Below are positions 1 to 20,306 of a stretch of DNA of 64,000 nucleotides, one piece after another. This stretch comes from Candidatus Forterrea multitransposorum CG_2015-17_Forterrea_25_41 (GTDB lineage Archaea; Iainarchaeota; Iainarchaeia; Iainarchaeales; CSSED10-239), in assembly GCA_009392915.1 (NCBI GenBank), contig CP045477.1, positions 256,001 through 320,000 on the forward strand, in the 5' to 3' direction. A model generated the notes under the pieces. That model was not told the DNA's origin, did not search any database, and was given only the letters and a program-made list of their open reading frames with translations. Position 1 is the stretch's first letter; every line of letters begins with the position of its first letter. The position numbers were made by a program, and so were the translations under genes.

Positions 1-2832
1 TCATTTGTAAGCATACCTGTTTCAGCTGAGTTAGGTGATGAAGCAAAAAGCCAAGTAGGAAATGTTTTAATTGAACAAGTATTTTTAGGTGGTGGAAAAC
101 TTCTAAATAAAGTCTTTGGACTAAACCCAATAGTTCACGGTGTCTTAGCAGGTGGTTTTTCTGCAATAAATACTTTTTCTCAACTTTCAAAAGTAGAAAT
201 TGATTTTTCCTTAGATAGAGATCAAGTAAACCTTTCTGAAGATAAAGAAGATTATTTTGAACCATATGATAATTACCTTTTAGATAATAAAATAGAACAA
301 GATGTAACTTTAAAAGACAACATGCTTTTAACTGATAAAAATATCTTAGATGCACAATTTATTGAAACAAAAAATTTATCTGAAATTGATAATGGAAGTA
401 ATTCTCCAAATTTTAGACTTGCAGATAAAACAAAACTTGTAAAAGTTTTAGATTCAAATAATCAAGCAGTATCTTTACAAAAAAGAGAAATATTATTTGA
501 AGATACAAATAAAACAATTGAAAACGAATATGAATATAGAACCTTTGTAGTTAAATATCCTAAATCAACATATACAGGAAAAGTAGATTATGATCTTGGT
601 TTTTCTGATCTTTTAGGATCATGGGCAAATCTTTTAGTTCCATTCTATAATGGTGCAAGTAATATTAAAATAAGTAAATTTTTAGATGGTTCTAATACAA
701 AACTTATAGAAAAAATAAATGAAGAAAAAAAAGAAGAAATACTTTTAGAACCTTTCAAATTAATATTTAATTCTTATGTTAGAGATTCACTTGAAAATGT
801 TGAAACAGACCAAGTTAACTGTGTTACTGAAGGTGGATTACTTTTAGGTCAAACAGGAACAGAAGCTCTTCCAAATATAGCTTTAGATTGGACTTATAAT
901 TCTTCAAATGCACAAACAATTTCAGGTATGAATGTTTCAAGACTTGATTGGTGTGATGCTGATTTAACTGGTGAAGAAAACAAAAACTCAATCTTTTGTG
1001 ATTCAACACAATTCTCAATTGAACTTTTAAATAAACTTGAAAAAATTCAAAACTTTGTAAAAGATAATAAAGCTTCATTTACATGTCCAACACCAGGTGT
1101 TACTCAAAGCTTAATTTCAGAAAATAACAATATAGGAATAACACAATTAAATTCAAGTTATGATTCTTCAATAATTTCTGTTGAATATCTACTTGAAGGA
1201 ACAATGAATTTAGATGATTTTAATATTGTTCCAGAAACATTAGGAAGTTTAGCTCTTACTCTTCTTAAAGACGGAGTAGAGGAAGATAGTAAAATAATAG
1301 AGTTTACTTTAGAAGACTTTATTGAAAATAAATTCTCAGGAACAGAAGAATTTGATGTTGGTTTTATTTTTGATGATGAAACTAATTTTAAAATAACTGC
1401 AATTTTAACTTTATCAGATCCATATAGTTCAGTTGATTCAAAATTAGATAATCTTTTAGAAAATGAATTTACTCCAAATTCAGAAACTTGTGATTTAGAA
1501 AAAACATCTCAAAATATAAATCTTTTCTCTAAGAATAAGAAAATAGATACTTCATTAGTAGAGTTTAGATCTTATTTAATGAAAGATGGATATTCTAATG
1601 ACTTTAAATCAGACTTTGATAGATATTATAGACATACAATAACAGCAGCTCCAGATATCTATAAAGATTATTATTATAAATATTTTACAACAGATAATTT
1701 TACTTTCCAATCATCCTTTGATTCAGAACCTGGAAGATTAATGCTTCAAGGTCCTGGAAGATACAATGTTTTATTAAAAGTAACATTTGATGATGAATGG
1801 AATTTATTTGATAAAACAACAGATGAAGTTACAGGAAAAGTTGAAGTTATTTTAACAAGAGAAATTGCACCTGAAAGAGATTCTCCTCTTTACTATATGC
1901 CATTTAATGGTCTTGTTGGAATTGATTCTGAAAATGCAAGACAAGGTTATGGTGTTGACTTTACAGGAGATGTTGTAACAGTTTCAAAACTTCAAACTAA
2001 TGAATATTTAAGAACAGAGCCTTTTACACAATCTAATACAGTTAACACAGTTTCTGTAAAAGAGTATGGTAAAAATCCAACTGACTTTTCTTTCTTAAAT
2101 AATGGACAAACAAGAGGAATGCTTCTTAATATTAATTTATCAAGTACAAAAACAAATCCAGAGCTTGTCTTTGTTCCATCAAGAGCAACTCCTGTTGCTT
2201 TAAAAGTTTCAAATCAAAATAATGATGCTTATGCTTTCTATAAGCTTGATATAGGAGCTCCTCAAGCTCAAGGTGGAGAACCTGCATTAACTCCTGGTAG
2301 TTTAGTTCCATGGACAGGTGTTGGAAATTGTCTTGACTTTACAGGAATTTCAATTTTAGAAACTTATAAAGGTAGACCAGACATACATGCAATTTCTTCA
2401 AAACTTGCACCTTCAACAACAAGTGACACTGTTTCATATGGTGTTGAATGGGAAGGAAGAAATATTACTAGAAGAGGAGATGTATTCTTAAGAACAGTCT
2501 TTTACACACCAAGTAATTTTAAAACAGGTGATGGTTTAAGTGTACTTACTTTAGATTCATATGATGATGCAGCAGCTTTCTATACATTAGGTCAAGAGAA
2601 TGCAAGTTCTGTTGAGCTTAGAAATGTTTTAGGAAACAATGCAGATATTAAATATATTAGTGAAATCTTTTCACTTGTAAACGAAAAGAAAGCATGTATT
2701 GATTATACAGCTAATAATTTAAAAATTTCATATAATCCAATAGCCGTATCAGAACCATTATTTGGTGGAGATTTATCTTCAGATTCTCAAAATGCTTGGG
2801 TTGAAAGTAAAGGCGGATGTATAATAAATTAA
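1..2832 (+). CDS. Giant surface protein, 5'-truncated by the window edge (last ~943 codons); paralog of the C-terminal part of the 2466-aa neighbour
   Basis: Frame 1 has no stop codon in nt 1-321, so the ATG at 322 in the ORF track is only an internal Met. It aligns colinearly with the last ~890 aa of ORF 2848..10248: CVTEGG..TGTEALPNIALDW vs CVTDTG..TGEGAVPNISLNW; YYMPFNGLVG..RQGYGV vs FYRMPFNGFVG..RQGYGV; WTGVGNCLDFTG vs WTGVGSGCDFSG; FLRTVFYTP vs YLRTVFYSP. Confidence 0.85.
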   Translation, partial: SFVSIPVSAELGDEAKSQVGNVLIEQVFLGGGKLLNKVFGLNPIVHGVLAGGFSAINTFSQLSKVEIDFSLDRDQVNLSEDKEDYFEPYDNYLLDNKIEQDVTLKDNMLLTDKNILDAQFIETKNLSEIDNGSNSPNFRLADKTKLVKVLDSNNQAVSLQKREILFEDTNKTIENEYEYRTFVVKYPKSTYTGKVDYDLGFSDLLGSWANLLVPFYNGASNIKISKFLDGSNTKLIEKINEEKKEEILLEPFKLIFNSYVRDSLENVETDQVNCVTEGGLLLGQTGTEALPNIALDWTYNSSNAQTISGMNVSRLDWCDADLTGEENKNSIFCDSTQFSIELLNKLEKIQNFVKDNKASFTCPTPGVTQSLISENNNIGITQLNSSYDSSIISVEYLLEGTMNLDDFNIVPETLGSLALTLLKDGVEEDSKIIEFTLEDFIENKFSGTEEFDVGFIFDDETNFKITAILTLSDPYSSVDSKLDNLLENEFTPNSETCDLEKTSQNINLFSKNKKIDTSLVEFRSYLMKDGYSNDFKSDFDRYYRHTITAAPDIYKDYYYKYFTTDNFTFQSSFDSEPGRLMLQGPGRYNVLLKVTFDDEWNLFDKTTDEVTGKVEVILTREIAPERDSPLYYMPFNGLVGIDSENARQGYGVDFTGDVVTVSKLQTNEYLRTEPFTQSNTVNTVSVKEYGKNPTDFSFLNNGQTRGMLLNINLSSTKTNPELVFVPSRATPVALKVSNQNNDAYAFYKLDIGAPQAQGGEPALTPGSLVPWTGVGNCLDFTGISILETYKGRPDIHAISSKLAPSTTSDTVSYGVEWEGRNITRRGDVFLRTVFYTPSNFKTGDGLSVLTLDSYDDAAAFYTLGQENASSVELRNVLGNNADIKYISEIFSLVNEKKACIDYTANNLKISYNPIAVSEPLFGGDLSSDSQNAWVESKGGCIIN

Positions 2833-2847
2833 AAGAGGGATTAATTA

Positions 2848-5800
2848 ATGTCATTTAAAGATGCTTGGCAAAATTTTCTAACAAAGATAGACAACAGAAT
2901 ACCAATTAAAAAGATAACAGGCCCACTTGATAAAAAAAATCCCTTAACTTCTTTTTTTATTTTTCTTTTAATAATTTTAGTTGTTTTATACTTAATCTTT
3001 GGATCAAGTATAACACTAAATAATCAAAAACTAACTGAAGTTACAATAAGACTTGCAGATTCAGATAATAATATTTTAGATAATTTTGATTTTAAGATTA
3101 GAAATATATCTGATGGAATAACAAATAGTTATGTTACAAACTCATCAGGTTCTTTAACTTTAGAACTAGATTTAAATAAAAAATATTTATTAATTATTGA
3201 TTCTCCTAATTATGAACTTTTAGAAGAAGAAATTAATTTATCTTTAGATTCTTTAAATTTTATAGTTACTGTTTTAGATACTCCAATTAATTATTTAAAA
3301 ACAGTTTACTTTGAAGATGCATTAACTAATAGCTTAATTGAAGATTCTTTAAATGTTACAATTAGATGTGATAATGGAGAAATAATTACTCCAAATACTA
3401 TTGATACTCAATCTGGAAGTGTAGAAATTAATGTTCCTTTAGAATGTGAAAATATTTATGCATCTGTAAGAGGAGATAGGTATATTGAAGAAAATCTAGA
3501 GATGCCTATTACAGAAAGTACTTTCAAGCTTGAATCTATAACTGAAATATTAGAGAGTGGAAGAGTTTCTATTTCAGTATTTTCTGGAGAAGATATTATT
3601 CAAGATTCAATAACTATTAAAATATTTTCAGTTGATGATTCAATAACTCCAATTAATACTACACAAACAACAAATGGAATTGGTTTTTTTAATTCAATAC
3701 CAGTTGGTGAATATATTGTTAAAGCAAGTGATGTTTCAAATAGATATCTTCAAAAACAAGAACAAGTTACAATAATTAAAAACTCACTTTCTGAAATTAC
3801 ATTTGATTTAATAGATACAGATACAGACTCTCCTATAATAATTGATCCTGATACAAATCAAGAAATTGTTATAAGAGAAGTTACTGTTTTTGTAAAAGAT
3901 AAGGATTCAGGAGAAATTATAGATTCTTCTTTTGATCCTAGTGTTACTTTACTTTTAGATGGTAATGAAAATATTGAACAAAGAAACCTTAATGAAGGTT
4001 TTATTTTTAATATTTCAGAGGATAAATCATATTCTCTTAAAGCAACAGCAGAAGGTTATATTCCTGGAGAAATTATTCCAATAATTTCTGGTAAAAATAC
4101 ATATATTTTTAATTTAGAAAAAATAACAATAAGTAATGTTTCAAACCTTAATATTACTGTTCAAGATGAAGACTTAAAACCAATTGTTGGTTTAAAATCT
4201 TGGATATATGATAAAGATGGACAATATATAGATCCTAGATTTGATTTTTCAACATCTGATGAAAATGGAAATATTGTTTTTGAAAATATTCCTGATCTTA
4301 ATTTTACAATAAAAGTTAAAAATAGTTTTATTGAAGAGACTTCTTCAATGTATCATAATTCTCCACCAGAAGATACTAACATAACATTACCTGTAGAGAT
4401 TGGTACTGGTACAGTTAATTTAACTGTTAAAAATAAATTAAATGATATTGTTTCAAATGCACAAGTTACTTTTTATTCTGAAAGTTTAGAAGTTTTAGGT
4501 AGTTCTTTTGCATCTTCAAATGGAACTTTAGAAAATGATCTTAAAGCTGATAAAAGAATTTTTATAAAAATAGAAGCTGATGGTTATCTTCCTTACTTTA
4601 CAGAGCTTTTTAGAATTTATAAAAATAAAACAGTTACAAAAGAAATTATTCTTGAAAGAGAAAATTTATCAGATGATGTTTCTGTTGAGTTTTTAGGACT
4701 TTATAATTCTTTAGATACTGAAGTTGAATCTTTAAAAAACAATGAAGTATTTTATTTTAAGTTTAAAGCAATCATGCCTGTTTCAAGTCAACATTTTAAT
4801 TTTGTATTTAGAGCAGGTTCTTTTACTTCAGTAACAGAAGATATTGTTTTTATAATGCCACAAAATACTTCTTTAGGTATTCCTGTTTATTATGAAAATG
4901 AGCCATTTAATGAATCAGGGAATTATTTAGAATCTAAGTTAGTTGATATTGAATTCTTAGGATATCCTGCTTCAGTTCATGAAATTACAATTCCTATAAG
5001 AATTAAAAATGCAGCTATTAATGAAAGAGTTTCTTTCTTTTATGATTCTTCAATAAATAATATTGACTTTATGTCAAATAATTTTAATCAATTACAATAT
5101 TTTATAGAAGCTACAAGTCTTTGTGGAGAAGATTTTTGTTTTTCAGGACAATATGTTGATGTTTCTCAAGACTTAAGATATGATATTTCTTCAAATAATT
5201 TAATTTCAACAAATATTCATTCAGATTATATTTTAGAATATCAAATTACAAATTCTTCTTCAAATAGTTTTGAAGATGTAAGACTTTCTACAAGAAATTT
5301 AAATAATGATGATAATCCAGTAGCTATGATTAACATTAATAGTTATTCAATTTCTGGAGAAGCAACTTCTGTTGGTCAAACAATTGAAGGAGAAAATAAT
5401 TTTAATATTCCTTTTACTGGTGATGAAATTAATTTAGAAAAAATTAATCCTTTTTCAAGTATTAATTATACTTTAAATGTAACTCCTTTAAATCTTGGAC
5501 AATCTAAACTTACAAATAGAATTATTTCTCTTCAAGAAGAAATCTATTCTCTTCCTATAAACTTTTCAGTTTCAGAACTTGAAACTATGGAAATTGATTA
5601 TGAACCTAAAAATATTGTTCCTGGACTTCCTTTTGATTTATTAGTAACTGTAAAAGATACTCAAGGAGAATATTTAGAAGGAGTAAATATTAATATTTTA
5701 CAAAAAGTTAGAAATGAGTATATTACTGTTTCAACAGGAAAAACAACTGATCCTCAAGGAAATGTAATAATAACTTTACCATCTTTAAGACCAGGAGAGA

Positions 5801-8800
5801 CTTTTGAAATACAAGCTATAAAGTCAAAATATTTTTCTCAGAATGTTTCTTTTACAATCGGAACTGATATTTTAGATGTTTATTCTCAAGAGCAAATATT
5901 ATCTTCTGAAAGTCCACTTGAAGTATTTATTCATAAAACAAATATTAATGGTGAAACTTATTCTTTAACTTTAAAAAACAAAACAAACTATGCTTTAAAA
6001 ATTAATCAATTTAATACTGAAGATTTTTCTTTTAATAAATCTTATTTACTTAATTTAGAGCAAACTGTTAATTATCTTAATAATCAAATAACTTCTCAAG
6101 CAGAAGGTTTTGTAATTCCTGCAAATGAATCTAAAGAAATTGTAATTAAGTTTGCCCCTTCAGATTCTGCAAGAACTCATCCTGTTTCAGAAGATATTTT
6201 AGGTGCAATTACAGGAAATTATTCTTTAAATAATTATGATTATCGTTTTACAATTCCTGTTAAAGCAAAATTTTCTGTTGGAAGTGGTGTTTTATTTGAT
6301 GATTGTTTAGTTGTAACTCAAAGTCCAGGAGAATGGAATACTGTTGTTTCTACAAGTACTCAAACAACTTCTTTTACAATAAAGAATACTTGTCTTTCAA
6401 AAGAAGGAGAAGTCCCAATACCTATTAAAAATGTACAAGCAAAGATATCTTCTCAAGCAGATAGATATGGTGTTTATTTCTTAAACCTTATAGGCCCATC
6501 TTCTTCAAATCAAATACAGTTGTCTGAAAATTACTATAGAGTTGTAATTGATCAAATGGCTCCTGAAGAAGAATATAGAGTTGATTTAACATTTAATACT
6601 AATGGTACAAGATTTGCAGATGTTAAAACAAATATACATCTTAATGCTCAAGTAGAAACTGAAGATGGTTTATCTTTTGTAAATAAAGAACCTAAAGATA
6701 TTTTCTTAAAAACAAATATTTCAATAATGAATCTTAATGATTGTTTTTCATATATTGATCAAAATGGAAAAGTAATTAATTCAGGTGGTCTTTATACTTT
6801 AGAAGGTATTGAAGAAAATGAATTAACTATTAGAAACAATTGTCAAGGAAAAGCTACTTTTAAAATGAATCTTTGTGATGCTTATGATTTAGGTTGTAAT
6901 GATTTAATTATTACAAATACAGATGAAGAAAATAATATTTTAAGATTTTCACTTAACGATTCTGAAAAAACAGTATATATTAAAAAAGATTCAACAAAAG
7001 CACCTGGTGCTTATATTCTTAATAACAGAGTCTCTGTTATAAATAATTTTGAAAGAGAACTTGCATCTTCTTTTGCTCTTTTAAAAATAAATGCAAAAGA
7101 TCCTAATGGTTTATGGATGGAAGATCCTTTTATAGAGATTAATGAAGATAAAGTTTCTGAGATTAAAAGATTATATAATAATAATTTAGAAAAGACTCCT
7201 TGGGATTATGCAAGTTATTATCAAGGAGAAGAAGGTTTTGGAAAATTTATAACAAATATTTATTATACAGGAAATACTTGGAAAAAATCTTTTAATCAAC
7301 ATTGGAGTAGATGTATAGCTGGAGATGATACTTGTTTATTTAACGGGGATAATTCTTTACTTTCAATGAGATTTTTACCAGAAAATCAATTAAGTAATGT
7401 TGGTGCAGAAGGATTAAGTGCAGGTGGTGCAATTGGGATAGGAATTGGTACTGCTGCAATTGTTTCATTAGTTTTAATTATGGCAAAAGTTGCTGTATTA
7501 GGAAGTCTTTTAGGACCTGTCGGTTGGATAGTTGCTGGACTTTCAATTGTTGTTGCATCAATAGCACCATCTTTCTTTTCAGATTATGATGTAGATGTGC
7601 AACCAAGGTTTTTGGATGTTTCTGAAAATAATACTATTGATAATTTAGTTGCTTTAAAAGAAATATCTGTAGATGATTTAAGTGATCAAAAAGAATTAAT
7701 TAATGTATTTGATATTACTGGTGCAAGATATTTTAAATATTTTAATAATGTTATTTTTGCACATGGAAAACTTGCTTCTAAAAAAGAAATTAAAAGTGTA
7801 CTTCCAAAATGTAATGGTATAAATAATTTAGTGCCTGTTGATCAATTTTTAAAAGTATATAATAAACCTCCATTTTGTGATGAAATAACTATAGAAGAAA
7901 CTGAAGATTCTTATATTTATAAAACAAGTTGTAATGGACAAAAATTAAATAGACTTGAATTAAATTTATTCTATAGTGCTTATTCAATATGTAAAAGTGA
8001 TGAAACATATTGGCCAGAACAAGCAGGTATAAAACCTTTACAGTTTAATTTAACTGATGAAATATATAATTTATTAGATAATGATTCTAAAAAATATTAT
8101 TTTAAAAAATATGAATTTAATCCAACTTTAGATGATTCAAATAGCACACAAGATTTAGCTTTTGTAGATTCAGATAGTGTAGGAAATTATAGATTTGGTT
8201 TCTTTTTAACAAAACCTGAAGAAACACCAAATTATGATCTTTCATTACAAGAATGTGTAACTGATACTGGAAGAACTGGAAAAACAGGAGAAGGTGCAGT
8301 TCCAAATATTTCTCTAAATTGGAATTGGGCTGAAACTGATTGTGCACAAACATATTGTGATGCAACTCAATTAACTCAAGATGTTTTAGATAGAATTAAT
8401 GATGCTGAAAAATTAATTTCATCAAATGTTGTTCAATGTCCTATAAGTAATCAAGAACTTTATGACCAAGCATTAAATGGTTCTTATAAAGTAACTGCAG
8501 AACCATCTGATGTTATTAATGAAATACCTGTTGGAAAAGTAGGTATTAATTCTGTAAAATTAGATTCTCAAAATAATAAATTAGCAATAAAAGTAGTTTT
8601 AGAAAACAGATCTGATACACCATCTTCAGGAACTATTGTTATTAGTCTTGATGATAAACAATTAGAATCTATAAAATACAGAGATGTAGCTTCAGGAGAA
8701 TATATTGAAGAAAATATAGATTATCCTGGATCTTATTCAAAAAGTATAACTGTTCCTTCTGGTATTGATAATACTAATGAAATAATTTTTGTTTATAAAG

Positions 8801-10321: not shown

Positions 10322-10684
10322 ATGAGAAGATACATTTATTTATTTTTAATCGTTTTCTTAGTTTTTCCATTTATTTCTGCACTTAGTTATGATAATGAAA
10401 TCTATGTAAACCCTTTTGTTTTTGGTGTAATTAGAGGGGATGATGGGGAAGTTATTTCAAATATTTCTGATGATGAAATAATAGATCCTGAAATGCAAGT
10501 TTCAAGTGCAAATGGGTTTACTAAAAAATCAGATCTTGATTTAACCATAAGAGAGAATCTTTTGATTTTTAAACTTCCTTCTTATCAAAAAACAAATAAT
10601 AATTCTTTAAATAAATATACTTTTATTTATAATACCTTTGATTATCCTTCAAAGAATGTAAATATTTTATTTAAATTAAATTGA
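10322..10684 (+). CDS. Small secreted protein (120 aa), unknown function
   Basis: N-terminal signal-peptide-like sequence MRRYIYLFLIVFLVFPFISA|LS. A TATA-like ttaatatatatatatt lies ~25-30 nt upstream of the ATG with no SD, suggesting a leaderless start. The stop overlaps the start region of the next gene. Confidence 0.55.
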   Translation: MRRYIYLFLIVFLVFPFISALSYDNEIYVNPFVFGVIRGDDGEVISNISDDEIIDPEMQVSSANGFTKKSDLDLTIRENLLIFKLPSYQKTNNNSLNKYTFIYNTFDYPSKNVNILFKLN

Positions 10685-10692
10685 GAAAATAT

Positions 10693-13110
10693 ATGAGATA
10701 TTTAAAAAAAATTATTTTAACAGTAATATTAATTACTTTTATTTTACTAGTTCAATCATATGTGTTTTCAGCAAGTTGTAATTTAACTCCAAATCAAACT
10801 TCTCTTAGAACTCTTTCTTTAGGTTGTAGTGGTGATGCTTGTGATTTTGTTTTAATTAAAAGTGAAGATGTATCTTCTCAATATAATTCTTGTATTGATT
10901 CTTGTGATCCTGATAATTATCCTGAAAATTACAAAACTTGTATGACTGATTGTTATGATTCTTCAATTAATTCTACAACTGATATTTCATTAAACAGTTC
11001 TTTAAGTTTTTCAAAATCTTCTGAATGCTCTGATAAAGAAATAAATGTTTCTTTAGCAGCAGATATTAATTTTGAAATGTTAAATGAAACAACTTCTCTT
11101 TCAATTTCAGGTATTGATTCTTTAAATACTAATGGAAAAGATATTATAATTTTTGTAAACAATAATGATAAACTTGGAGATGCAACTTTTAGGTTTGATT
11201 TTAGTGATTTAATAATTTCTGATACTTCTAAAATAATTATGACAACAAAAGAAAGAACTTCAATTACAGATTCTATTAATGGTGGGTGGGATGATTGGAA
11301 AAGAGATGGTATTAAACTTTATTTTAATAATTTAGAAATATTAGAAAATGCATCACTTGATTTAAATATGTATATTCCTAAAAATATTTTTAATGTAATT
11401 GATGAAATAGATATGCCTAGAACTTCACTTGCAGGTGGTGAATTAACTTTTGATGGAAACTTAATAGTTAATAATGGTAATTTAAATATTTATCTAAAAG
11501 CACAAGATAGTCAAGATGGTAGAAATTATATAGATTCTGGAAATTGTTTTGATGATCCAGCTTCACAAGGTGGAACTGTTAAAGAGGCAGGGCACATATT
11601 TTTTAACTTAAATTATTTAGAGAATAATGGTTTACTTTTTTCTAAAATGTTATCTGGAAATGGTGGTATTGGAGGTAATGGATCAAAAGCTCAGGATGGA
11701 TGTCGTGGAGATCCTCCAGGTCATGGTGGTAGAGGGGGAAATGCAGGAGATATTTTTTTATATATTAATAATATAGATAATACTAGTAATATTGATTTTA
11801 ATTTAATTGCAGGAAATGCTGGTCCTGGTGGAGATACAGGTTTTGATGGTGGAAATTCTCGTGAAAATTTTGCTATTGGAGGTTCTGGTGGTAATGGAGG
11901 AAATATTTATTTTTGTAAACCAATTTGGAATTCTGGCTTTAGTTGTTTGATAAATAATTATAATTCATTAATAAATAAAGGTAATTTTAATTTAGTTGCA
12001 AATACTGGTTTTGGAAATAATGGTGGAAATAAGAATAATCATCCTGATGAAGGTAGAGCAGGAGATGGAGGAGATGGTGGTTCTTATTTATCAAGTTTAA
12101 CGTTTGATTTTATAAGAAACTCTGGAAATTTAAATATTGCTCTTGAAACAGGTTATGGTGGTTTTAAAGGAACTACTGATGGTGGTGAAGATGGTGTTGG
12201 TGGAAGAACTCCTAATTTTTTTATTAATTTCTTAGAAAATTCTTCTGAAAATTTAAATATATTTTTAAACAGTAAACATGAAATTGGTAATCTTGAATCA
12301 GATGTTATTATTGATAAATTACAAAATGGTAGTTATCTACCAAGTATGATATATACTGTTTTTACTGATTGGACTTTTACACCTAGTGAAGAGTGTGCAA
12401 TTAGTTGTCAATCTAAATTTGATTCTTGTTATCATTTGCCTTCAGCTTGTAATAGATTTTTAGATATGTGTTTATATACTTGTGATAAAACTACAGAAGA
12501 TCTTGAAACTGTTACACAAAATAGAAAAATAAAAATTAATGATGCATGTTATGTTAAACAACCATCAAGTGCTTTAGATTATATGACTGGATTTATATAT
12601 GTTAATTCTGCAAATAAAGATGTTTTTGAAAATCTTCTTCCAGAAAATGTTTCTTCTAATCTTACTAATAACTCAGAATGTGTAATCTGTGATTATTATG
12701 ATTTTGAAAATTTAAATGAAATATTTCCAACAGGTTCTGGAAATAAATTCTTTAAAAACTATACTTTATATTCTACAGTTCAAGGAAAAATTAATGCAGG
12801 AGATTTAGAAATACATTATGCTAAAAATGATCTATCTTTTACAAAAATAAATAAGCTTTATAATCCTTTTACAAAAGAAAATAATCTCCCACTTTATTCT
12901 AATAAACAAGATATAACAAGTAGTCAAGAACCTAATTCTCTAGGTTTGTATGAATATAATATAGATGCAAGTAATCTTGAATGGTATTATGATAAAGAAA
13001 TGGACTTATCAGAAAAAGATTTATATTGTTATAATCAAAATTATAGAATTGAAGGAAAAATAGGAACTAAGATTTTTAACTTCCCATTTACTCCATTATT
13101 TAAAAATTAA
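10693..13110 (+). CDS. Secreted or anchored protein (~805 aa) with a central Gly-rich repeat region (beta-solenoid-like) flanked by two Cys-rich segments
   Basis: The ORF track starts at TTG 10681; ATG 10693 is the more likely start. N-terminal hydrophobic segment ILTVILITFILLVQSYVFSA. About five repeats follow the pattern GNLNI.L..G.GG..G (GNLNIYLKA, SNIDFNLIAGNAGPGGDTG, GNFNLVANTGFGNNGGN, GNLNIALETGYGGFKG, ENLNIFLNS). Cx3C-type Cys clusters lie at nt 10777-10953 and 12394-12483. Confidence 0.75.
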   Translation: MRYLKKIILTVILITFILLVQSYVFSASCNLTPNQTSLRTLSLGCSGDACDFVLIKSEDVSSQYNSCIDSCDPDNYPENYKTCMTDCYDSSINSTTDISLNSSLSFSKSSECSDKEINVSLAADINFEMLNETTSLSISGIDSLNTNGKDIIIFVNNNDKLGDATFRFDFSDLIISDTSKIIMTTKERTSITDSINGGWDDWKRDGIKLYFNNLEILENASLDLNMYIPKNIFNVIDEIDMPRTSLAGGELTFDGNLIVNNGNLNIYLKAQDSQDGRNYIDSGNCFDDPASQGGTVKEAGHIFFNLNYLENNGLLFSKMLSGNGGIGGNGSKAQDGCRGDPPGHGGRGGNAGDIFLYINNIDNTSNIDFNLIAGNAGPGGDTGFDGGNSRENFAIGGSGGNGGNIYFCKPIWNSGFSCLINNYNSLINKGNFNLVANTGFGNNGGNKNNHPDEGRAGDGGDGGSYLSSLTFDFIRNSGNLNIALETGYGGFKGTTDGGEDGVGGRTPNFFINFLENSSENLNIFLNSKHEIGNLESDVIIDKLQNGSYLPSMIYTVFTDWTFTPSEECAISCQSKFDSCYHLPSACNRFLDMCLYTCDKTTEDLETVTQNRKIKINDACYVKQPSSALDYMTGFIYVNSANKDVFENLLPENVSSNLTNNSECVICDYYDFENLNEIFPTGSGNKFFKNYTLYSTVQGKINAGDLEIHYAKNDLSFTKINKLYNPFTKENNLPLYSNKQDITSSQEPNSLGLYEYNIDASNLEWYYDKEMDLSEKDLYCYNQNYRIEGKIGTKIFNFPFTPLFKN

Positions 13111-13133
13111 TTTAAAAAAAGAGAAGAAAGAAT

Positions 13134-16100
13134 ATGTCAATATTTAAAAAATCAAGAGACAAAATAGAAGCAGAAAAGCTATATGCTCTTTTATCAGACA
13201 AAACTACAAACTATACTCTAGAGGATATTAAAGAGACTATTAAAAAACAAGGTTATTCTGATAAAGTTTCTTCAATTGTTGTAAAGATGATTACAGATAA
13301 TAAACTTCCTTTAAAAGATTCAGTTAATAAAACAAAAACAAAAGAAGAAGTCTTAAAAGAATTATCAGCTTCTGTTGATAAAAACTTCTCTAAACAAAAT
13401 CCAAAAGATTCTTCAAAAGATTCAAAAAAAGAAGATAAAAATAATCAAAAAGAAAATACAAAAAAACAAGAAGATATTAAAAAAGAAGATTCTAAAAAAC
13501 AAAAAGAAGATCTTAAAAAAACAAAAGAAACAAATTTAAAAAATATTAATAAAGTTCCTTTCTTTACAAAAGTAAAAACTTTCTTTAAAAGAATATATTT
13601 CTTTTTTGAAGATAATTACTATAAGATGGTTGATGGTGTAAGTAAAGTTATACCTCTAAACAAATTAACAGACAAAATAGATAAAGTTTTCCCAAGTTTC
13701 ATATTATTCTTATTAATCTTAGCTTTATTGATATATTTAATACTTTCAGGAAGTTTATCTTTCTCTAAAACTTGGACAGTTGCTGTAGAGGTTTATGACC
13801 CATCTTCTGTACCCTTAAAAGATGTTTCTGTAACTTTAATGCTTAAAGATGAAAATTTTTCAACTTTAAAAACAGATATTTTTGGTGAAGTTATTTTTAG
13901 TGATTTTAAATCTAGAAAACAAAATATTAATTTAATAGCTTCTAAAGATAATTATGATACAGTTGAACATTCCTTTAAATTAAGTAAAAGTAATTTAAGA
14001 CAAAAGTTATATCTTCCAACAGATGTAAATTCTAAGATTGATCCTTCAGAAGAAGAAGTAAGAGAAATTTCTTTTGTTGAAAATAATACTGTTTTAATAA
14101 CAGATTCTGTATTAACTACAAATTTTTCTTGTACTAATGCAGATGTAGAACCTAATCCTACAAGAAAAGTTATTTCTTCAGGAAAGGTAACAGTTACAAC
14201 TTATTCTGGTTGTGGTGCTTTAAGAGTTTCTGTAACTTCAGATGATTTTTCTTCAATTACAAATCAAGTTATAAATTCTTCAAATAAAGTAAATCTTACA
14301 AGAATTAATCTTGATAGAGGTAATTTAGGTTTCTCTGTTAAAAACATATCTGGAAGTTCAATTCCTGGAACAGAAGTTAAAGTTTATAGTTCTTCAAACA
14401 CTACTTTTCCTCATGATACAACCACAACTGATCTTTATGGTTTAGGTGAGTTTAGTTTAGAACCTAAAAGTTATTTTTTAACTTTCTCAAAAGAAGGTTA
14501 TCTAACAAATCCTTTAAAAGGTCCTTTAACTGTTATTAAAAATGATTCTGTAAACACAGATGTAGTTTTATTTACTTTAGATGATCTTTTAGAATTTGAT
14601 TGTTCTGATGATAAATATTCACAATTTTGTATTGCTGATGAAATTGATTGTTTTAATCCAAACTTAAAACCATTTTTAATAAATAATGCTGATGGTTCTT
14701 GTACAATTGGAAGACCAGGTTATATTTCTGTAACTTTAAAAGATGTTAATTCTGGAGAACCTGTATATGCAGATATAACTTTAGATTCAAAATTAAAAGA
14801 ATCTGATCAAAACTTTTCTCTTGGTGAACATATTGCAAGGGATACTAATTTCTATACTTTTAATGTTATTGATTTCTATAATTATAGAGTAAGAGTTTTA
14901 AATACAGAAGAGAGTGGTTATCTTCAACCAGATCCAGTCACTGTAAACGGTATTGATCAAAATATAACAGTTAATTTAGAATATTCTTCTTCCCTTAACT
15001 CAGGAGATATTTCAGTAAATGTTAAGAGTGCAGATATGCCTATCTCAAATGCAAGAGTTTATTTATATAAAGAGTTTGAAGATGATTTTGTTTTAGTAAA
15101 TTCTGATCCATTATTTACAAATCAAAATGGAGATGTTAATTTTTATTCTCAAAGAGCAAATAGAGATTATTATGCTTATGCTTTACATAATGTTTTAGAT
15201 AAACAAGGAACTTCACAAACAGATGATTTAGATGTTAACTCAATACTTGATTTATCAATAGATCTTGAAGATATTCCAAAGATATTAAATCTAAAGGTAA
15301 GTCCAAGTATTTCTTATGATATTAATTTTTATAATTCTTCAGATAATCTTGTAACTGAATATGTAAGAACAGATCTTGAAGATGGAAATTCTCTTTATTA
15401 TTTTACAGGTTCTATAAATAAAGTTTATGCAGTTGTTTCTTCTTCAGGTTATACTACCTATCAAACAGATTATATTACTTTAATACCTGATCAAGAAGTT
15501 TATAAAACAGTTAATCTTTCTACACTTTCTTCTTGTGAAGACTCTAAGTTAGAAATTTTAGGTCTTTATGATGGTTCTGGAGTTTTAGAAATTGATAATA
15601 TTGATTTTGTTGAAAATGATTTAGATAAAGAATACAGATTAAAGTTTAAATATATTTCATGTACAGAAGATGAAGAATACAATCAAGCTACTTTAAGACT
15701 TGGAAGACAAGGTTTAATAGATGATGAATATTTATTCTTTGTTTCAGATCAATTTACTTCTCAAGATATAGATGTTACAAGAGGTTATAAATTTTCACAA
15801 GAACATATACCTGACTTTAATTTTGATCTTTTCAATCTTAATTATTCTCAAGATAGATCTTATGATTATTCTGGTGAAGGTTATAAATGGATTGAAATTG
15901 ATTTTGAAAAATTAAATTCTGATATCTTAGAGTTTTCAACTAACTTTAAGTTCAGAGAAGATTCAATTGTTCCTTTTGAAAACTATGTTTTAAATTATAA
16001 ATCATTTGCAAGTATTTATGATGAACTTTATTCTTTTGATCCTGTTTTAAATGAATCTTGGACAGAGATACCAATCTATCCTAATGGTTATTTTTATGCA

Positions 16101-19100
16101 GAAACAAACAAATATTTAATACCTTTTGAAAATACAGATTATATTTATTCTGTAAAATTAAAAGACTGGAATCAAAATCTTTTAGAAGAATATGCTGGTG
16201 GTTATCCTGTATCTATTAATAATTTTTATAAATATGATCTAAGTTATTTATATTTAAATCAAACAGAAAGAAACGGTAGTGTTTTACAATCTTCTCAATA
16301 TACAAATAATAATTTAGATTATTTAAGTTATGGTTATACTTCATCTTTAGGTAACTCAAGTTCAGGAGATACTCAAAATGCTACAAATAACATGACTTCA
16401 TTTTTAATACTTCCAGATTATAATACTCTTCCAGGTTCAACAGATACTACTATAAATCAAGAAATCTATTATCATATTAATGTTGATGATTATAATTATT
16501 CTTTAGATGATATTAATGCAGAGATTGGTTATTATTTAAATACTTATACTCTTTTAGAGCCAAAAGGTTTTTTTGAAAATACTAATTTTTCAGATTCAAG
16601 TATTATTTCTGATGTTTTAGATGAGTACCCTTTAGTTAATACAAGTATTTATTCTTATTTATCTGATGAAAATTTTATATTTAATATTTCAACTAACTTT
16701 TCAGGAAACAGAATAATTATTGGTGAAAATAATTTAGGTTTTAAAGTTTTAGATAATTATGGTTCTCCAGTTTCAAATGTTTTAATAAAGTATAAAGTTG
16801 ATGGTGATGAGCTTATAACTTTAGGGTCTACAAATGAACAAGGTATGCTTAGTGATCAAAATATTTTTATAAATCTTTCAGATATTGGAAAAAATATTAA
16901 TTTTGTATTTTTGTTTTCTCCAGAGTTTGGTTTCCTTGCAAACACAGTTGTAAGAAACAAAGAAATCTATTCTGGATTTTCAATAGTTCCAGAAGATATT
17001 AATTTATCTGCAAGTTATTATATTTTAAATGATCAAGTTATAATTGATCAAGTTTCTACAAATAATTATAATCTTTTAAAAGAAACAAATTATTCAAGCA
17101 CTTTAGAAGAAATTGATTTTGTTGGAGAATCAAGTTTGTTTAATCTTGATTCTATTAAAAATAAAATGATTGAAGATAATAATCTTGTAAAAGATTTATT
17201 AGAAGGAGAAAATGAAATTATTACAAGTCTTTTCTTAAACAATAATATTTCTCAATCAACAAATCTTTTAGGTTATTATAGAAATGAAATTGATATTAAT
17301 AATTCTTTAACACAATTATTAGATATTAATTCAAATGTTGAAATTATTAATCTAGGTTCAATTAACTATGATTTTAATCTTGAAAAACATTTTATGAAAG
17401 GACTATTAATTGAAAACAATAATGTTTCTCTTGAGCTTATAAAAGAAATAAACGAATTAATTACTTTAGATTTAAATCTTTTATCAGATAACTCTCAAGC
17501 AACATTTGATAGTATTTCTGTAGAGCTTCCTGAATTTTTAGATCTTGAAGAATTTAATGAAGGTTATTCTTCTTTAGTTGGAGAGTCTTTAACTTCTGAT
17601 GGTTTAATAATTCCTCTTAACTTTAAGATTAATAACTCCTATTCAGGTTCTCTTCCAACTCCAAAGGAAGATATTAATTTAACTTTTAATGTTTATCTTG
17701 ATGATAAATTAGTTTCTTTTAATAAAATAATTTCAATAAAAGTATATTCTAAAGATGACATCTTTTTAATAGAGTCTGAAGGAGACTTACAGATCTATTG
17801 TACTGTTGAAAATTGTTCTCAAAAAAAATCTTTTACTTTTAAAAAATTAGTTAATAATTATATATTAAATCTAAATAAAGAAATTGAAATCAATGAGATG
17901 GATTTAATTGAAGTTTCAAATCTTTTAAGTAATATTAATTTTATTGACCTTTCTGAAAAGAACAGAGCTTTATCTTTTAGTGCCCTATATAATTCTGTTA
18001 ACGAAGAAAATAAACAAGGTAATTTTGATTTAATTTTTAATATTAATATTTTAAATGATTCTTTTAATATAGAAATACCTATTGATTATTTAATTATAAA
18101 ATATTTAGAAGAAGAAACCATAAGTGAAATTACTTTTAATTCCTGTATTGGTGTTGGTGGTCAAGAAAGCAGTAGTGATTTATTTATTTTAGGTTATTGT
18201 CAAGATACCCAAGATACTTGTAAAACAGGAGAATCTGCTGTTCCAAAAGTATTTTTTAATTGGGCAGAATCTGACCTTTCAACAGATTATGACGGAAAAA
18301 CCTGGAATAATGTCTGTATTGGTAATAGCCAAGATACAATGTCAAGTAAATATGCTTGTGATTCCTTACAAATGTTAATTTCAATTTTTAATAAAATTGA
18401 TAATGGTGTAGAAGAATCATTCTATATTAAACTTTTAAATGATGGAATTTCTGATGCTCTTTTAAAAGATTTTATAAATTATAATACACTTTACTTAGGT
18501 TATGATAAACCTAGTGAAGAGATCTTTTCAGAAGATGCAGTTGATGATGGTTTATTTAAAATAACAATTAATAATTCTCCAGAAATTAAAATTTTCCAAC
18601 CTGGTATCTATAAAGTTTTAGTATATGGTGATGATTCAGGAAATGCATATATGGGAAGAGAAGAAGATCAAATGATAGATATACGTCTAGAAAAGGTAAG
18701 TGATCTTCCTGCATCAGAGATAAGTGTATTCCACTATATGCCATTTAATGGTAATTTAGGTTTAGATGGTACAAGAGAGGGTTACGGTATTAAAAATCAA
18801 GATAGTGATGTTGCTCAATTAACTCAAGATGTTGATATTAATTATATTGATGTTATAGATGAAATAATTCAACTATCTTTAACTAATAATAATCTAGAAA
18901 CTTCTCACTTAACACAAACATTAAAGTCTGAAGGAAAAATACTTGAATTAAATAAATATGATAGTGTTGTTGAAATGATTTATTCTCCTTCATATCCAGT
19001 ACCAATATATTCTCATGTAGCATGTATTGATAAAGATGATTTTAGTTATAATCTTTATGAAAATAATAATGCTTTAGATAATATTATAGGTGGATCATTT

Positions 19101-19577
19101 ATTGATTGGAATTTTAATAATACCATAAGATCAGATGTTAAAACAACAGTAACAGGAGATGTTACTAGATACGTATTTAACAATAATAATTTAGAAGGTT
19201 CTTTAAACCTTAATTCAATGTTATATCTTCCTGTAAAATTAAATATTGATTCTTTAAAACTTAAAACCACAGAGTTTGCAAATAATAAAAATACAACTTT
19301 ATTTACAAAGAATAATTTTACAGGTGTAAATCAAGCAGATTTAGTTTTCTCTGAAGATGATTATGTTCTTGGAAATGATTTAATAAACCTTAATACTATT
19401 AAAGGTTTATTTAATTTTATAAGTCAAGAAAAAGCATGTATTGAAAAATCTATTGATAACACAACTATTAAATGGATTGATGAAAAAGTTAATTTTACAG
19501 AACAAGAATTACTTGATATAAATAGTAATATTCCTTCTGATTATTCTTGTCTTGAAGGAGAGGTAATCATAGATTAA
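13134..19577 (+). CDS. Giant (2147 aa) type-II-like membrane protein: Lys/Glu-rich cytoplasmic N-terminus, single TM, tandem beta-sandwich repeats, short version of the conserved C-terminal module
   Basis: Long ORF. TM segment FPSFILFLLILALLIYLILSG lies at nt ~13688-13752. CarboxypepD_reg-like units are present (e.g. GFSVKNISGSSIPGTEVKVYSS...TDLYGLGEFSLEPKSYFLTFSKEGY). The C-terminal module from nt 18144 carries CKTGESAVPKVFFNW, YACDSLQ and FHYMPFNGNLGLDGTREGYGI. Confidence 0.85.
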   Translation: MSIFKKSRDKIEAEKLYALLSDKTTNYTLEDIKETIKKQGYSDKVSSIVVKMITDNKLPLKDSVNKTKTKEEVLKELSASVDKNFSKQNPKDSSKDSKKEDKNNQKENTKKQEDIKKEDSKKQKEDLKKTKETNLKNINKVPFFTKVKTFFKRIYFFFEDNYYKMVDGVSKVIPLNKLTDKIDKVFPSFILFLLILALLIYLILSGSLSFSKTWTVAVEVYDPSSVPLKDVSVTLMLKDENFSTLKTDIFGEVIFSDFKSRKQNINLIASKDNYDTVEHSFKLSKSNLRQKLYLPTDVNSKIDPSEEEVREISFVENNTVLITDSVLTTNFSCTNADVEPNPTRKVISSGKVTVTTYSGCGALRVSVTSDDFSSITNQVINSSNKVNLTRINLDRGNLGFSVKNISGSSIPGTEVKVYSSSNTTFPHDTTTTDLYGLGEFSLEPKSYFLTFSKEGYLTNPLKGPLTVIKNDSVNTDVVLFTLDDLLEFDCSDDKYSQFCIADEIDCFNPNLKPFLINNADGSCTIGRPGYISVTLKDVNSGEPVYADITLDSKLKESDQNFSLGEHIARDTNFYTFNVIDFYNYRVRVLNTEESGYLQPDPVTVNGIDQNITVNLEYSSSLNSGDISVNVKSADMPISNARVYLYKEFEDDFVLVNSDPLFTNQNGDVNFYSQRANRDYYAYALHNVLDKQGTSQTDDLDVNSILDLSIDLEDIPKILNLKVSPSISYDINFYNSSDNLVTEYVRTDLEDGNSLYYFTGSINKVYAVVSSSGYTTYQTDYITLIPDQEVYKTVNLSTLSSCEDSKLEILGLYDGSGVLEIDNIDFVENDLDKEYRLKFKYISCTEDEEYNQATLRLGRQGLIDDEYLFFVSDQFTSQDIDVTRGYKFSQEHIPDFNFDLFNLNYSQDRSYDYSGEGYKWIEIDFEKLNSDILEFSTNFKFREDSIVPFENYVLNYKSFASIYDELYSFDPVLNESWTEIPIYPNGYFYAETNKYLIPFENTDYIYSVKLKDWNQNLLEEYAGGYPVSINNFYKYDLSYLYLNQTERNGSVLQSSQYTNNNLDYLSYGYTSSLGNSSSGDTQNATNNMTSFLILPDYNTLPGSTDTTINQEIYYHINVDDYNYSLDDINAEIGYYLNTYTLLEPKGFFENTNFSDSSIISDVLDEYPLVNTSIYSYLSDENFIFNISTNFSGNRIIIGENNLGFKVLDNYGSPVSNVLIKYKVDGDELITLGSTNEQGMLSDQNIFINLSDIGKNINFVFLFSPEFGFLANTVVRNKEIYSGFSIVPEDINLSASYYILNDQVIIDQVSTNNYNLLKETNYSSTLEEIDFVGESSLFNLDSIKNKMIEDNNLVKDLLEGENEIITSLFLNNNISQSTNLLGYYRNEIDINNSLTQLLDINSNVEIINLGSINYDFNLEKHFMKGLLIENNNVSLELIKEINELITLDLNLLSDNSQATFDSISVELPEFLDLEEFNEGYSSLVGESLTSDGLIIPLNFKINNSYSGSLPTPKEDINLTFNVYLDDKLVSFNKIISIKVYSKDDIFLIESEGDLQIYCTVENCSQKKSFTFKKLVNNYILNLNKEIEINEMDLIEVSNLLSNINFIDLSEKNRALSFSALYNSVNEENKQGNFDLIFNINILNDSFNIEIPIDYLIIKYLEEETISEITFNSCIGVGGQESSSDLFILGYCQDTQDTCKTGESAVPKVFFNWAESDLSTDYDGKTWNNVCIGNSQDTMSSKYACDSLQMLISIFNKIDNGVEESFYIKLLNDGISDALLKDFINYNTLYLGYDKPSEEIFSEDAVDDGLFKITINNSPEIKIFQPGIYKVLVYGDDSGNAYMGREEDQMIDIRLEKVSDLPASEISVFHYMPFNGNLGLDGTREGYGIKNQDSDVAQLTQDVDINYIDVIDEIIQLSLTNNNLETSHLTQTLKSEGKILELNKYDSVVEMIYSPSYPVPIYSHVACIDKDDFSYNLYENNNALDNIIGGSFIDWNFNNTIRSDVKTTVTGDVTRYVFNNNNLEGSLNLNSMLYLPVKLNIDSLKLKTTEFANNKNTTLFTKNNFTGVNQADLVFSEDDYVLGNDLINLNTIKGLFNFISQEKACIEKSIDNTTIKWIDEKVNFTEQELLDINSNIPSDYSCLEGEVIID

Positions 19578-19579
19578 AT

Positions 19580-19951
19580 ATGAGTAATATTTTTTTAAAT
19601 TTTTTAAATGATTTTGATTTAATCTTACAGTTATTTTTAATTCTTACAATCATTGCATTTATCAGAAGAAGAGTAACTCACAATACATTAGCTCTTTTTT
19701 TAATAAGTGTAACAGTTATTGCTATGATCTTTTTATTCTGGCCTGTCTTTAAAATTGGATATATTTTCTATATTCTTTTGTCAGTTGGAGTTGCAGGAAT
19801 ATTTGTTGATTTCTTCTTTATTAGTGCTGGTGGTTCTGCAGAAGAGATGATGGGTAAAAAAATGGAGACTCATGGAACTCCTGGAGCAACTGAACATGCT
19901 GCAAGAAATCAATTAGTTAAAAAAATGGGTGGAAGACCTCCTGGAAGATGA
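19580..19951 (+). CDS. Small polytopic membrane protein (123 aa), basic C-terminal tail
   Basis: Starts 2 nt after the giant ORF's stop. About 3 hydrophobic helices are followed by the soluble tail MGKKMETHGTPGATEHAARNQLVKKMGGRPPGR. Confidence 0.6.
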   Translation: MSNIFLNFLNDFDLILQLFLILTIIAFIRRRVTHNTLALFLISVTVIAMIFLFWPVFKIGYIFYILLSVGVAGIFVDFFFISAGGSAEEMMGKKMETHGTPGATEHAARNQLVKKMGGRPPGR

Positions 19952-19958
19952 ATTAAAA

Positions 19959-20306
19959 ATGAATAGTAATAAAGGTTTTTTTGGTGGTATTCCTTTAATT
20001 GCAAAGATATTAGTAGTGTCTGTTATTGCAATTTTGATTGTTCCTGGGGCAATGGCAATTTTTCCTTGGGTTAAGTATGTTATAATGGGTTTAATTGTTT
20101 TTTTTATTTATGAAAACGCAGCACAGGCTTTTGGTGAAAAAAATATTCTTACCTTTATTGTGACTGGTATTTTAGCTTATTTTTTAGTTTATAAATATTT
20201 ATTTCTTACAAGTGCTATAATGATGGCATATTTATTTTTAGGCTTTGGTTTAGTTTCTGTTTTCTTTTGGGGAACTTCTACTCTTTCCAGAAAAGGCAAA
20301 AAATAA
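19959..20306 (+). CDS. Small polytopic membrane protein (~115 aa)
   Basis: The ORF track begins at GTG 19929, overlapping the previous gene. In-frame ATG 19959 lies 7 nt after the previous stop and is preferred. Four hydrophobic segments; ends with the basic tail SRKGKK. Confidence 0.6.
   Translation: MNSNKGFFGGIPLIAKILVVSVIAILIVPGAMAIFPWVKYVIMGLIVFFIYENAAQAFGEKNILTFIVTGILAYFLVYKYLFLTSAIMMAYLFLGFGLVSVFFWGTSTLSRKGKK

Follow-up and report, generated by a model that had tools for sequence, protein, structure and literature searches.

The described systems closest to the locus reported here are the surface layers (S-layers) formed by SlaA/SlaB of Sulfolobales and by tetrabrachion of Staphylothermus marinus and, among adhesins, MpIBP, LapA, and SiiE. 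The locus is an array of genes for giant proteins in Candidatus Forterrea multitransposorum (Iainarchaeota), and it was analyzed from a 64-kb stretch of contig CP045477.1 (positions 256,001 to 320,000, forward strand), referred to as the window; all coordinates and strands below are positions in the window unless an extract with an L number is named. Our reading, which we hold at a probability of roughly 0.5, is that the locus encodes a lineage-specific, noncatalytic cell-envelope and contact system of Iainarchaeota. Like the SlaA/SlaB and tetrabrachion S-layers, its products are large, acidic, beta-rich, extracellular, and membrane anchored, comprise more than one polypeptide, show a precursor or split two-chain organization, and are lineage specific without homology across phyla. 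They differ in that no sequence or profile match links them to those proteins, in that the anchor of the giants is N-terminal, with a cytoplasmic motif, rather than C-terminal, in their number (five paralogous units of 2100–2500 amino acids [aa], as against one or two proteins), and in having dedicated small polytopic partners.

Unlike MpIBP, LapA, and SiiE, the locus has no RTX repeats, type I secretion signal, or adjacent type I secretion system genes: RTX/HemolysinCabind gave no Pfam match, and the sole ATP-binding cassette (ABC) system among the open reading frames (ORFs) scanned is of the ABC-2 type and lies 35 kb away. It is further set apart from those adhesins by having 4–6 recognizable repeats per giant, a beta-helix that is a separate secreted protein, and an archaeal setting with a single membrane. 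The bacterium Apilactobacillus kunkeei is reported to encode Giant1–5, five tandem extracellular proteins of 3000–8000 aa (PMC12863079), and the likeness lies in five consecutive, very large extracellular paralogs to which a small genome devotes several percent of its length (PMC12863079). There is no evidence of homology between the two sets, and conserved small membrane partners are not mentioned in the abstract (PMC12863079). Giant beta-sandwich surface proteins are already a known and common kind, and the locus introduces no new principle. No description of this protein family was found in the literature searched, and, as far as our searches show, the family, its cytoplasmic N-terminal motif, its hairpin and split classes, and its small membrane partners M123 and M125 are undescribed so far.

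Organization of the Locus

An ORF listing of the window bears out the seven same-strand genes, with their positions and spacers, that had been read in a first-pass annotation of this DNA from its letters. All seven ORFs are on the + strand and are separated by 15, 73, 8, 23, 2, and 7 nucleotides (nt), given ATG starts at 10693 and 19959. They encode the 3′ part of a 964-aa protein, G1 (1..2832; an open frame of 943 codons containing an all-beta C-terminal module of ~680 aa); giant 2 (G2; 2848..10248; 2466 aa), which comprises an N-terminal part, a hairpin, and a C-terminal module; a 120-aa secreted protein (10322..10684); a secreted, predicted beta-helix protein (10693..13110; 805 aa from the ATG, 809 aa from a TTG start at 10681); giant 3 (G3; 13134..19577; 2147 aa), of the class without an internal hairpin; and two small polytopic membrane proteins, M123 (19580..19951; 123 aa) and M125 (19959..20306; 115 aa from the ATG, 125 aa from a GTG start at 19929), the start of the latter being backed by a homolog alignment and by the source gene calls. 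The tRNA-Arg(GCG) gene (20315..20388, +) follows 8 nt past the last stop codon and forms the 3′ boundary of the array, outside the system. The tight spacers and the single strand imply co-transcription.

G1 had been taken for a giant truncated by the window edge. Extension of the contig shows a complete, secreted protein of 964 aa (L001 7091–9985, source contig), which begins 63 nt before the first letter of the window. The source contig, read for 10 kb upstream of G2, shows, in order, a 2323-aa giant, a gene for an 1867-aa protein, and the 964-aa gene. With ~13 kb of upstream sequence included, the array holds five paralogous units in place of the three giants originally described. As read from a 90%-related strain, the distance between the start of the upstream giant and the window edge is ~13 kb, and in that strain the locus measures ~33 kb from this start to the M125 stop, ~4–5% of a 0.66–0.84-Mb genome. 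G2 lies on a Joint Genome Institute (JGI) metagenome contig of 663,621 bp, and the assignment to Iainarchaeota, a DPANN lineage, agrees with the genome reduction that had been surmised.

The locus proteins, GW835_02480–02515 at NCBI, are all named "hypothetical protein" there and by JGI. Full-length orthologs of the locus ORFs are found in many genomes, and between the window and one co-occurring strain (dS ~0.04–0.07), the comparison behind all selection values given here, the ratio of nonsynonymous to synonymous differences per site (pN/pS) is 0.19 for G2 and 0.24 for the 964-aa protein. The ORFs are therefore real genes and not chance frames.

Architecture of the Giants

A hydrophobicity scan places N-terminal hydrophobic anchors at aa 29–59 of G2 (cytoplasmic segment plus transmembrane [TM] signal-anchor, 2848..3024, +) and at aa 181–213 of G3 (13674..13772, +), and the 1867-aa protein and the upstream giant, the latter read in the related strain, likewise have an N-terminal anchor. 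No C-terminal hydrophobic segment was found in the window giants, the 1867-aa protein, or the upstream giant. N-terminal TM anchors had been claimed for all three giants, which is correct for G2 and G3, whereas the 964-aa protein has a cleavable signal peptide. An N-terminal anchor is present in 96 of 100 long family representatives. In an N-terminus alignment of 100 sequences (97 family representatives and three giants of the window genome), the ~35 residues before the TM segment carry a shared motif, roughly ..Y..lEDkYY..LDkid..iPvyki.DpIDkvvPSF (in short, ..EDkYY..DpIDkvvPSF), of which G2 has a weak copy and which reads FFFEDNYYKMV...TDKIDKVFPSF in front of the G3 anchor. This long, conserved n-region suggests that the N terminus of the giants would be an uncleaved signal-anchor with a cytoplasmic function.

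G3 is composed of a cytoplasmic N-terminal stretch of ~180 aa, the family motif, the TM anchor, a stalk, and the C-terminal module. Its first 180 residues (13134–13670) include an extra Lys/Glu/Asp-rich cytoplasmic extension of ~145 aa before the motif, with a short, possibly folded segment followed by a low-complexity run; the extension is conserved, and the ratio of nonsynonymous to synonymous substitution rates (dN/dS) between strains is 0.17 for aa 1–150.

CarboxypepD_reg (PF13620), a transthyretin-like beta-sandwich domain, is the only Pfam family above threshold in the giants, with whole-protein scores of 53.5 bits for G2, 38.1 for G3, 62.8 for the 1867-aa protein, and 71.2 for the upstream giant, all above the gathering cutoff of 32.3 bits; weaker matches were obtained to Big_1, SpaA, and MG. 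The domain had been recognized in the first-pass annotation, but the "long runs" of repeats described there shrink to 4–6 domains detectable per giant by iterative hidden Markov model (HMM) searching, mostly in the first ~600 aa. Membership in CarboxypepD_reg is at the level of the domain only and says nothing about function. The ectodomains are acidic (isoelectric point [pI] 4.4–4.9), and Cys counts in the giants are even and locally paired. The N-terminal anchors, the lack of a C-terminal anchor, the even Cys counts, and the acidic pI together argue for an extracellular design, in accord with the earlier description of an extracellular, membrane-anchored locus; no known family was matched even with profiles and structure prediction.

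The dense N-x-S/T sequons reported earlier are not borne out, with 42, 43, and 11 observed against 37, 35, and 12.5 expected from composition, and sequon enrichment as a sign of heavy glycosylation was rejected on these counts. No thioester motif (CxEQ) was found in the locus proteins, and an identity as alpha-2-macroglobulin or thioester proteins was rejected accordingly.

Fused and Split Forms of the Hairpin Class

G2 contains an element that is absent from the earlier description, an internal Gly/Ala-rich hydrophobic hairpin of ~57 aa (aa 1523–1579; 7414..7584, +; hydrophobicity scan). An internal hydrophobic segment is present in 38 of the 100 family representatives and lies 791–1020 aa from the C terminus in 35 of these 38. 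The first ~1390 aa of G2 line up in order with the 1867-aa protein (1315 aa aligned at 22.5% identity, E value [E] 2e-29), and the 964-aa protein is, by sequence alignment and profile, the collinear counterpart of the last ~940 aa of G2; the Cys totals of the two (16 + 8 = 24) equal the 24 of G2. This collinearity indicates that G2 is the fused form, and the 1867-aa and 964-aa pair the split form, of one architecture.

The N terminus of the 964-aa protein is a classical cleavable signal peptide (MEKIKKNIKFLGIFLIMALMLSFVSIPVSA/ELGD), and the Gly-rich segment just after it aligns with the G2 hairpin (alignment A1, columns 40–135); this segment is less hydrophobic than that of G2 and is among the best conserved stretches in the orthologs (FGLNPIVHGVLAGGFSAINTF). 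The collinearity shows that one hairpin-class gene has undergone fission near the hairpin point in this clade, and the downstream half has gained its own signal peptide. Orthologs of the 964-aa protein found in a word-indexed protein search are 962–1001 aa long, 36–97% identical, and all "hypothetical"; being full size in relatives, they mark the stand-alone form as a conserved gene and not a broken one, and the split form is kept with intact ORFs in at least 10 genomes. The tail of the 1867-aa protein (aa ~1500–1867; L001 5950–7053) is low-complexity and coiled, with a 4-Cys knot at its end.

The Head Module and Its Family

The C-terminal module that had been proposed as a shared feature is indeed common to G1, G2, and G3. 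G1 and G2 align over 417 aa with 31% identity (E 1e-36 in one search direction and 9e-39 in the other), and G2 and G3 are 25% identical over 326 aa (E 3e-10). A profile of alignment A2 delimits the module in G2 with hmmsearch (aa 1544–2462; 7477..10233, +; domain E 2e-193), and in G3 two HMM domains with E of 6e-18 and 1e-63 cover aa 1509–2140 (17658..19553, +). The C-terminal region of the upstream 2323-aa giant was rejected as a homolog of this head module: it was not detected by the HMM, and the resemblance, judged by eye, is limited to short motifs.

An exhaustive HMMER search with the head-module profile recovered 668 clusters at 50% identity with E ≤ 1e-3, 383 of them with E ≤ 1e-30, and among the matches listed the module stands, in nearly every case, at the extreme C terminus of a protein of 2200–3250 aa. 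The family was seen with this search; a word-indexed protein search returned just 9–12 close orthologs per query, and a second, alignment-based run brought no gain. Two genomes with the main locus (CAZOCW010000003.1 and JBAZUY010000003.1; extracts L041 and L042) carry a second, more divergent pair of proteins of 1736–1983 aa that match part of the head module only (E 1e-14 to 1e-15), indicating that a genome can hold more than one such locus.

An AlphaFold2 model of the 964-aa protein (52 sequences; predicted local distance difference test [pLDDT] 82.5, predicted template modeling score [pTM] 0.64) is almost all beta, with the first 63 residues disordered. Its best fold matches are sugar-binding and Ig-like domains of GH2 enzymes, which are noncatalytic domains only and superpose with high root-mean-square deviation (rmsd). 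The head combines sandwich domains in a new way, and none of it folds like an enzyme. The head module, the 120-aa and 805-aa proteins, and M123 and M125 match nothing in Pfam, NCBIfam, or PHROGs, which upholds the view that the accessory genes lack a recognizable family, and searches of PDB sequences with single sequences and with profiles gave no match for the locus proteins. None of them matched an enzyme family in Pfam, NCBIfam, or PHROGs, nor did structure prediction, in agreement with the absence of a catalytic motif noted before. S-layer families (MSTP/DUF1608-type, halobacterial csg, and SlaA/SlaB) likewise gave no Pfam or NCBIfam match at E ≤ 0.1 and no PDB sequence match.

Secreted and Membrane Accessory Proteins

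The hydrophobicity scan shows signal-like N termini on both the 120-aa and the 805-aa protein. The former has no Cys, occurs in close relatives only, and conserves the motifs IYVNPFVFGVI[KR]GDDG and, at the C terminus, N[VI]N[VI]LFK. The 805-aa protein was rightly described as Cys-capped and Gly-rich: it has 22 Cys in helical caps, Gly-rich coils, and an invariant C terminus, FNFPFTP[LI]FK, and its 12 orthologs are all in close relatives. Its structure model (pLDDT 79, pTM 0.73) predicts a right-handed parallel beta-helix with the fold of the pectate-lyase-like superfamily. The best fold matches include the secreted adhesins EtpA (8vba), HMW1 (2odl), UpaB, and TibA and the phage tailspike CBA120 TSP3 (5w6f); a further match, 3p4g, we take to be the MpAFP beta-helix. 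In comparison with the two-partner secretion (TPS) and autotransporter adhesins and the tailspikes (EtpA, HMW1, and CBA120 TSP3), to which it is 6–13% identical, the 805-aa protein has no TPS domain, beta-barrel translocator, or trimerization or particle-binding domain, and the Cys-rich helical caps and C-terminal FNFPFTPLFK are specific to it. No catalytic family of the carbohydrate-active enzyme (CAZyme) type was matched by it in Pfam, NCBIfam, or PDB profile searches.

M123 and M125 are both basic, polytopic, and without a Pfam family. Our reading of the scan gives ~3 hydrophobic segments and a basic C-terminal tail for M123 and ~4 hydrophobic segments for M125, which always follows M123. 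M123 keeps its place immediately after the giants throughout the phylum. With the source contig counted, the surveyed loci contain 16 M123 homologs, beside giants, and 14 M125 homologs; when 28 M123/M125 homologs were scanned singly, one matched DUF7649 (E 0.0015). The two proteins are probably a membrane-embedded base or assembly partner of the giants.

Distribution and Synteny in the Phylum

In a synteny survey of one genome per species, 40 loci were found, and their informative record names are Candidatus Iainarchaeum, ainarchaeum, or Diapherotrites, with the exception of one "Thaumarchaeota" metagenome-assembled genome. Close relatives share the order of proteins of 2313–2323, 1600–1935, 962–1009, 2392–2525, ~125, and ~805 aa. 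Distant relatives have a core consisting of a 2440–2940-aa giant without the hairpin, a 2295–2460-aa giant with the hairpin in most loci, and homologs of M123 and M125. The 120-aa and 805-aa genes therefore look like additions of the local clade. The array had been called the one clearly accessory block of the window. Judged by gene content and order, it appears instead to be core to the phylum and not accessory, because the family and its core synteny are phylum-wide and purifying selection on the scaffold genes is strong. The locus proteins match no known family over their full length, and relatives keep both the order of the genes and undisrupted ORFs.

Constrained and Fast-Evolving Parts

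The strain comparison divides the locus into a rigid scaffold and rapidly changing parts. Beside G2 and the 964-aa protein, the constrained parts are the G3 stalk (aa 1–1500, pN/pS 0.15), aa 1–1500 of the 1867-aa protein (pN/pS 0.26), M123, which is 100% identical between the strains, and M125 (dN/dS 0.11). The G3 head (aa 1801–2147) and the C-terminal 473 aa of the upstream giant have pN/pS values of 1.64 and 1.14, which are not significantly greater than 1 (P 0.2 and 0.44) and are far above that of G2 (Fisher P ~1e-7; G3 head vs. G2, P 6e-8).

The 120-aa protein is 86% identical in amino acid sequence between the strains (dN/dS 0.58), and the 805-aa protein is 76% identical between strains whose G2 proteins are 98.5% identical, with a hypervariable center where dS reaches 0.77. 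In this center and in the last ~350 aa of the 1867-aa protein, dN and dS are both 0.3–0.8, which indicates allele replacement, and for the 805-aa center the high dS points to allele replacement rather than adenine-targeted mutagenesis. As regards diversity-generating retroelements, no reverse transcriptase family was found among the 37 window ORFs scanned, which are not all of the ORFs, and no search for TR/VR repeats was made. The tail of the 1867-aa protein is essentially replaced between the two strains (dN 0.37–0.64, dS 0.42–0.51), with the preceding 1200 aa nearly identical.

Function of the Locus

As a cell-envelope system, the locus would work as follows. The giants would be type II membrane proteins, in each of which the cytoplasmic motif and a single TM anchor are followed, outside the cell, by a stalk of transthyretin/Ig-like sandwiches stapled by disulfides and then by an all-beta head of ~680 aa; in the hairpin class, the hydrophobic hairpin between stalk and head would tie the head back to the membrane, and the other class would lack this tie. 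Several paralogs from one operon, together with M123 and M125, would form the outer protein surface of the cell. The constrained members (G2, the 964-aa head, M123/M125, and the stalks) would be the scaffold, and the fast-evolving ones (the 805-aa and 120-aa proteins, the 1867-aa tail, and the heads of G3 and the upstream 2323-aa giant) would be the exposed recognition and contact surface facing partner cells, substrates, or viruses. The anatomy, topology signals, family size, synteny, selection pattern, and lack of matches to known families or enzymes are shown by the data, whereas we infer co-assembly, the role of M123/M125, and coat function. Several points weigh against this reading: the S-layer proteins known from archaea tend to be smaller, to occur singly or in pairs, and to be C-terminally anchored, and the N-terminal anchor and five paralogous units here are unlike them; polysaccharide lyases share the fold predicted for the 805-aa protein, and a catalytic accessory is therefore possible; and the role of M123/M125 we infer from synteny alone. 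Nothing at the locus contradicts what is expected of a DPANN cell surface.

A general surface coat accounts for the data no less well than does the host attachment suggested earlier, which is pure conjecture. Under that alternative, the main rival and in our view the less likely of the two, the locus would be not a general coat but a dedicated apparatus for attachment to a host or partner cell, in which the giants are long-reach adhesins and the heads and the beta-helix bind the host surface. Giant bacterial adhesins have a similar layout of anchor, extender, and head, the secreted adhesins EtpA, HMW1, UpaB, and TibA are among the best fold matches of the 805-aa protein, a number of parts that are presumably exposed show hypervariability or relaxed constraint between strains, and the lineage is a DPANN lineage with a small genome; for the variable parts and the adhesin-like beta-helix, attachment is as good an explanation as a coat. 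However, adhesins specific to a host are not usually conserved throughout a phylum or under purifying selection as strong as that on G2 and the 964-aa head, the head of the hairpin class would be tied back to the membrane rather than placed at a distal tip, and Iainarchaeota are not established symbionts, with no host known; they have been argued to be possibly free-living (PMC10936187). A role in nutrient acquisition, with the beta-helix as a polysaccharide lyase, hydrolase, or depolymerase and the giants displaying carbohydrate-binding modules in a cellulosome-like manner, would suit the GH2-like fold matches of the head model, but we consider it unlikely, as those matches are to noncatalytic domains at high rmsd, no CAZyme or Pfam catalytic family was matched by sequence or profile, and the beta-helix protein is confined to close relatives whereas the giants are phylum-wide.

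The Gly/Ala-rich hairpin segment (GLSAGGAIGIGIGTAAIV...) raises the further idea of a membrane-insertion or fusion device, in which the segment inserts into a partner membrane and the 1867-aa and 964-aa proteins mimic the receptor-binding and fusion subunits into which a class I viral fusogen is cleaved. The highly conserved counterpart in the 964-aa protein lies right after the signal-peptide cleavage site, near the mature N terminus, and the recurrence of the segment in 38 of the 100 representatives, mostly 791–1020 aa from the C terminus, could be read in the same way. Yet the head is all beta, without a heptad-repeat coiled coil or a C-terminal TM segment, and a static two-helix membrane hairpin is a simpler account of the segment; the device as a whole is very improbable, and it is just as doubtful that the Gly/Ala-rich element is a membrane-inserting peptide aimed at the membrane of another cell. 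If it were, the locus would hold the genes, long sought, for the apparatus with which DPANN cells breach the membranes of partners, or fuse with them, and form cytoplasmic bridges. Identity as a class I fusogen or as a class II/fusexin HAP2 fusogen was rejected, since the three-domain class II fold is absent and so is the class I combination of coiled-coil core and C-terminal TM segment. The end of the array 8 nt from tRNA-Arg and the splitting of one paralog could suggest an integrated mobile or viral island or decaying pseudogenes, a reading to which we give almost no credence. GC content is 0.23–0.28 along the locus and differs little elsewhere in the window, so that there is no compositional island; no PHROG, integrase, or other mobile-element family is present among the locus proteins, synteny is kept across the phylum, and the split form is intact in at least 10 genomes with pN/pS well below 1. 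Mobile, viral, and pseudogene origins are effectively refuted by GC content, synteny, the conserved split form, and pN/pS. Enzymatic, fusogenic, and mobile-element explanations are all much less likely than coat or attachment.

To our knowledge, Iainarchaeota have no cultured member, and no description of their envelope was found in the literature searched; whether they live freely or as symbionts is disputed. If it is a cell-envelope system, the locus is the obvious molecular handle on their cell surface, because it takes up 4–5% of the genome, is phylum-wide, and encodes nothing but "hypothetical proteins." Its products can be targeted by metaproteomics, antibodies, and cryo-electron tomography, and it supplies markers that part the constrained scaffold from strain-variable exposed parts, and the split pair is a clean natural example of gene fission near a membrane hairpin.

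Surroundings of the Locus

The ORFs downstream of the array encode HisRS, AlaRS, ProRS, an ATP-dependent DNA ligase, split RpoB, RpoA′/A′′, an L7Ae/L30e-family protein, S12, S7, and EF-2, a gene set that identifies the organism as archaeal. The first-pass statement that everything downstream is core information processing holds roughly up to 50 kb, where the other scanned ORFs are a methyltransferase, a PLD-like protein, a DXR-like protein, and a D-aminoacyl-tRNA deacylase; it fails at 50–62 kb, where an MMPL pair, a CARDB protein, an ABC-2 transporter, and a T2SSE ATPase are encoded. The two membrane proteins of the MMPL family and, after them, the CARDB/DUF11 surface protein of 416 aa (50900–54583) form a second, small surface-related cluster, and the type II/IV secretion-family ATPase (T2SSE, PilB/FlaI-like, E 2e-25; 60124–61521) lies 40 kb past the locus, with no demonstrated tie to the giants. 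In the 375-aa DXR-like protein (48477–49604), the N-terminal 124 residues match 1-deoxy-D-xylulose 5-phosphate reductoisomerase (PF02670, E 4e-15). A gene resembling the methylerythritol phosphate pathway is unexpected because Iainarchaeota use the mevalonate route, if the statement to that effect holds (PMC10936187).

Between tRNA-Arg and tRNA-His, an 89-aa bacterial-type DNA-binding protein (Bac_DNA_binding/HU, from the annotation of the identical gene in extract L047) is encoded at 20508–20777 and is 100% identical between strains. In the related strain of L047, a 448-aa serpin (PF00079; L047 20252–21598) comes right after the HU-like gene, and the corresponding part of the window (20778–21199) has no ORF of at least 90 aa and carries tRNA-His instead; gene content beside the array thus varies between strains.

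In the 90%-related strain, a 558-aa protein without a Pfam family is encoded directly upstream of the first giant (L045 2644–4320). Its N terminus (MLKNKKGFNLFTALISLMLLSITLVFIF) looks, by eye, like a class III (type IV pilin-like) signal peptide, and the surface locus may continue upstream with pilin-like components. Upstream of the pilin-like gene, an 840-aa ORF with its 5′ end cut and no Pfam family (L045 12–2534) encodes a Cys/Gly-rich hydrophobic patch, Ser/Ala-rich linkers, and coiled-coil-like stretches.

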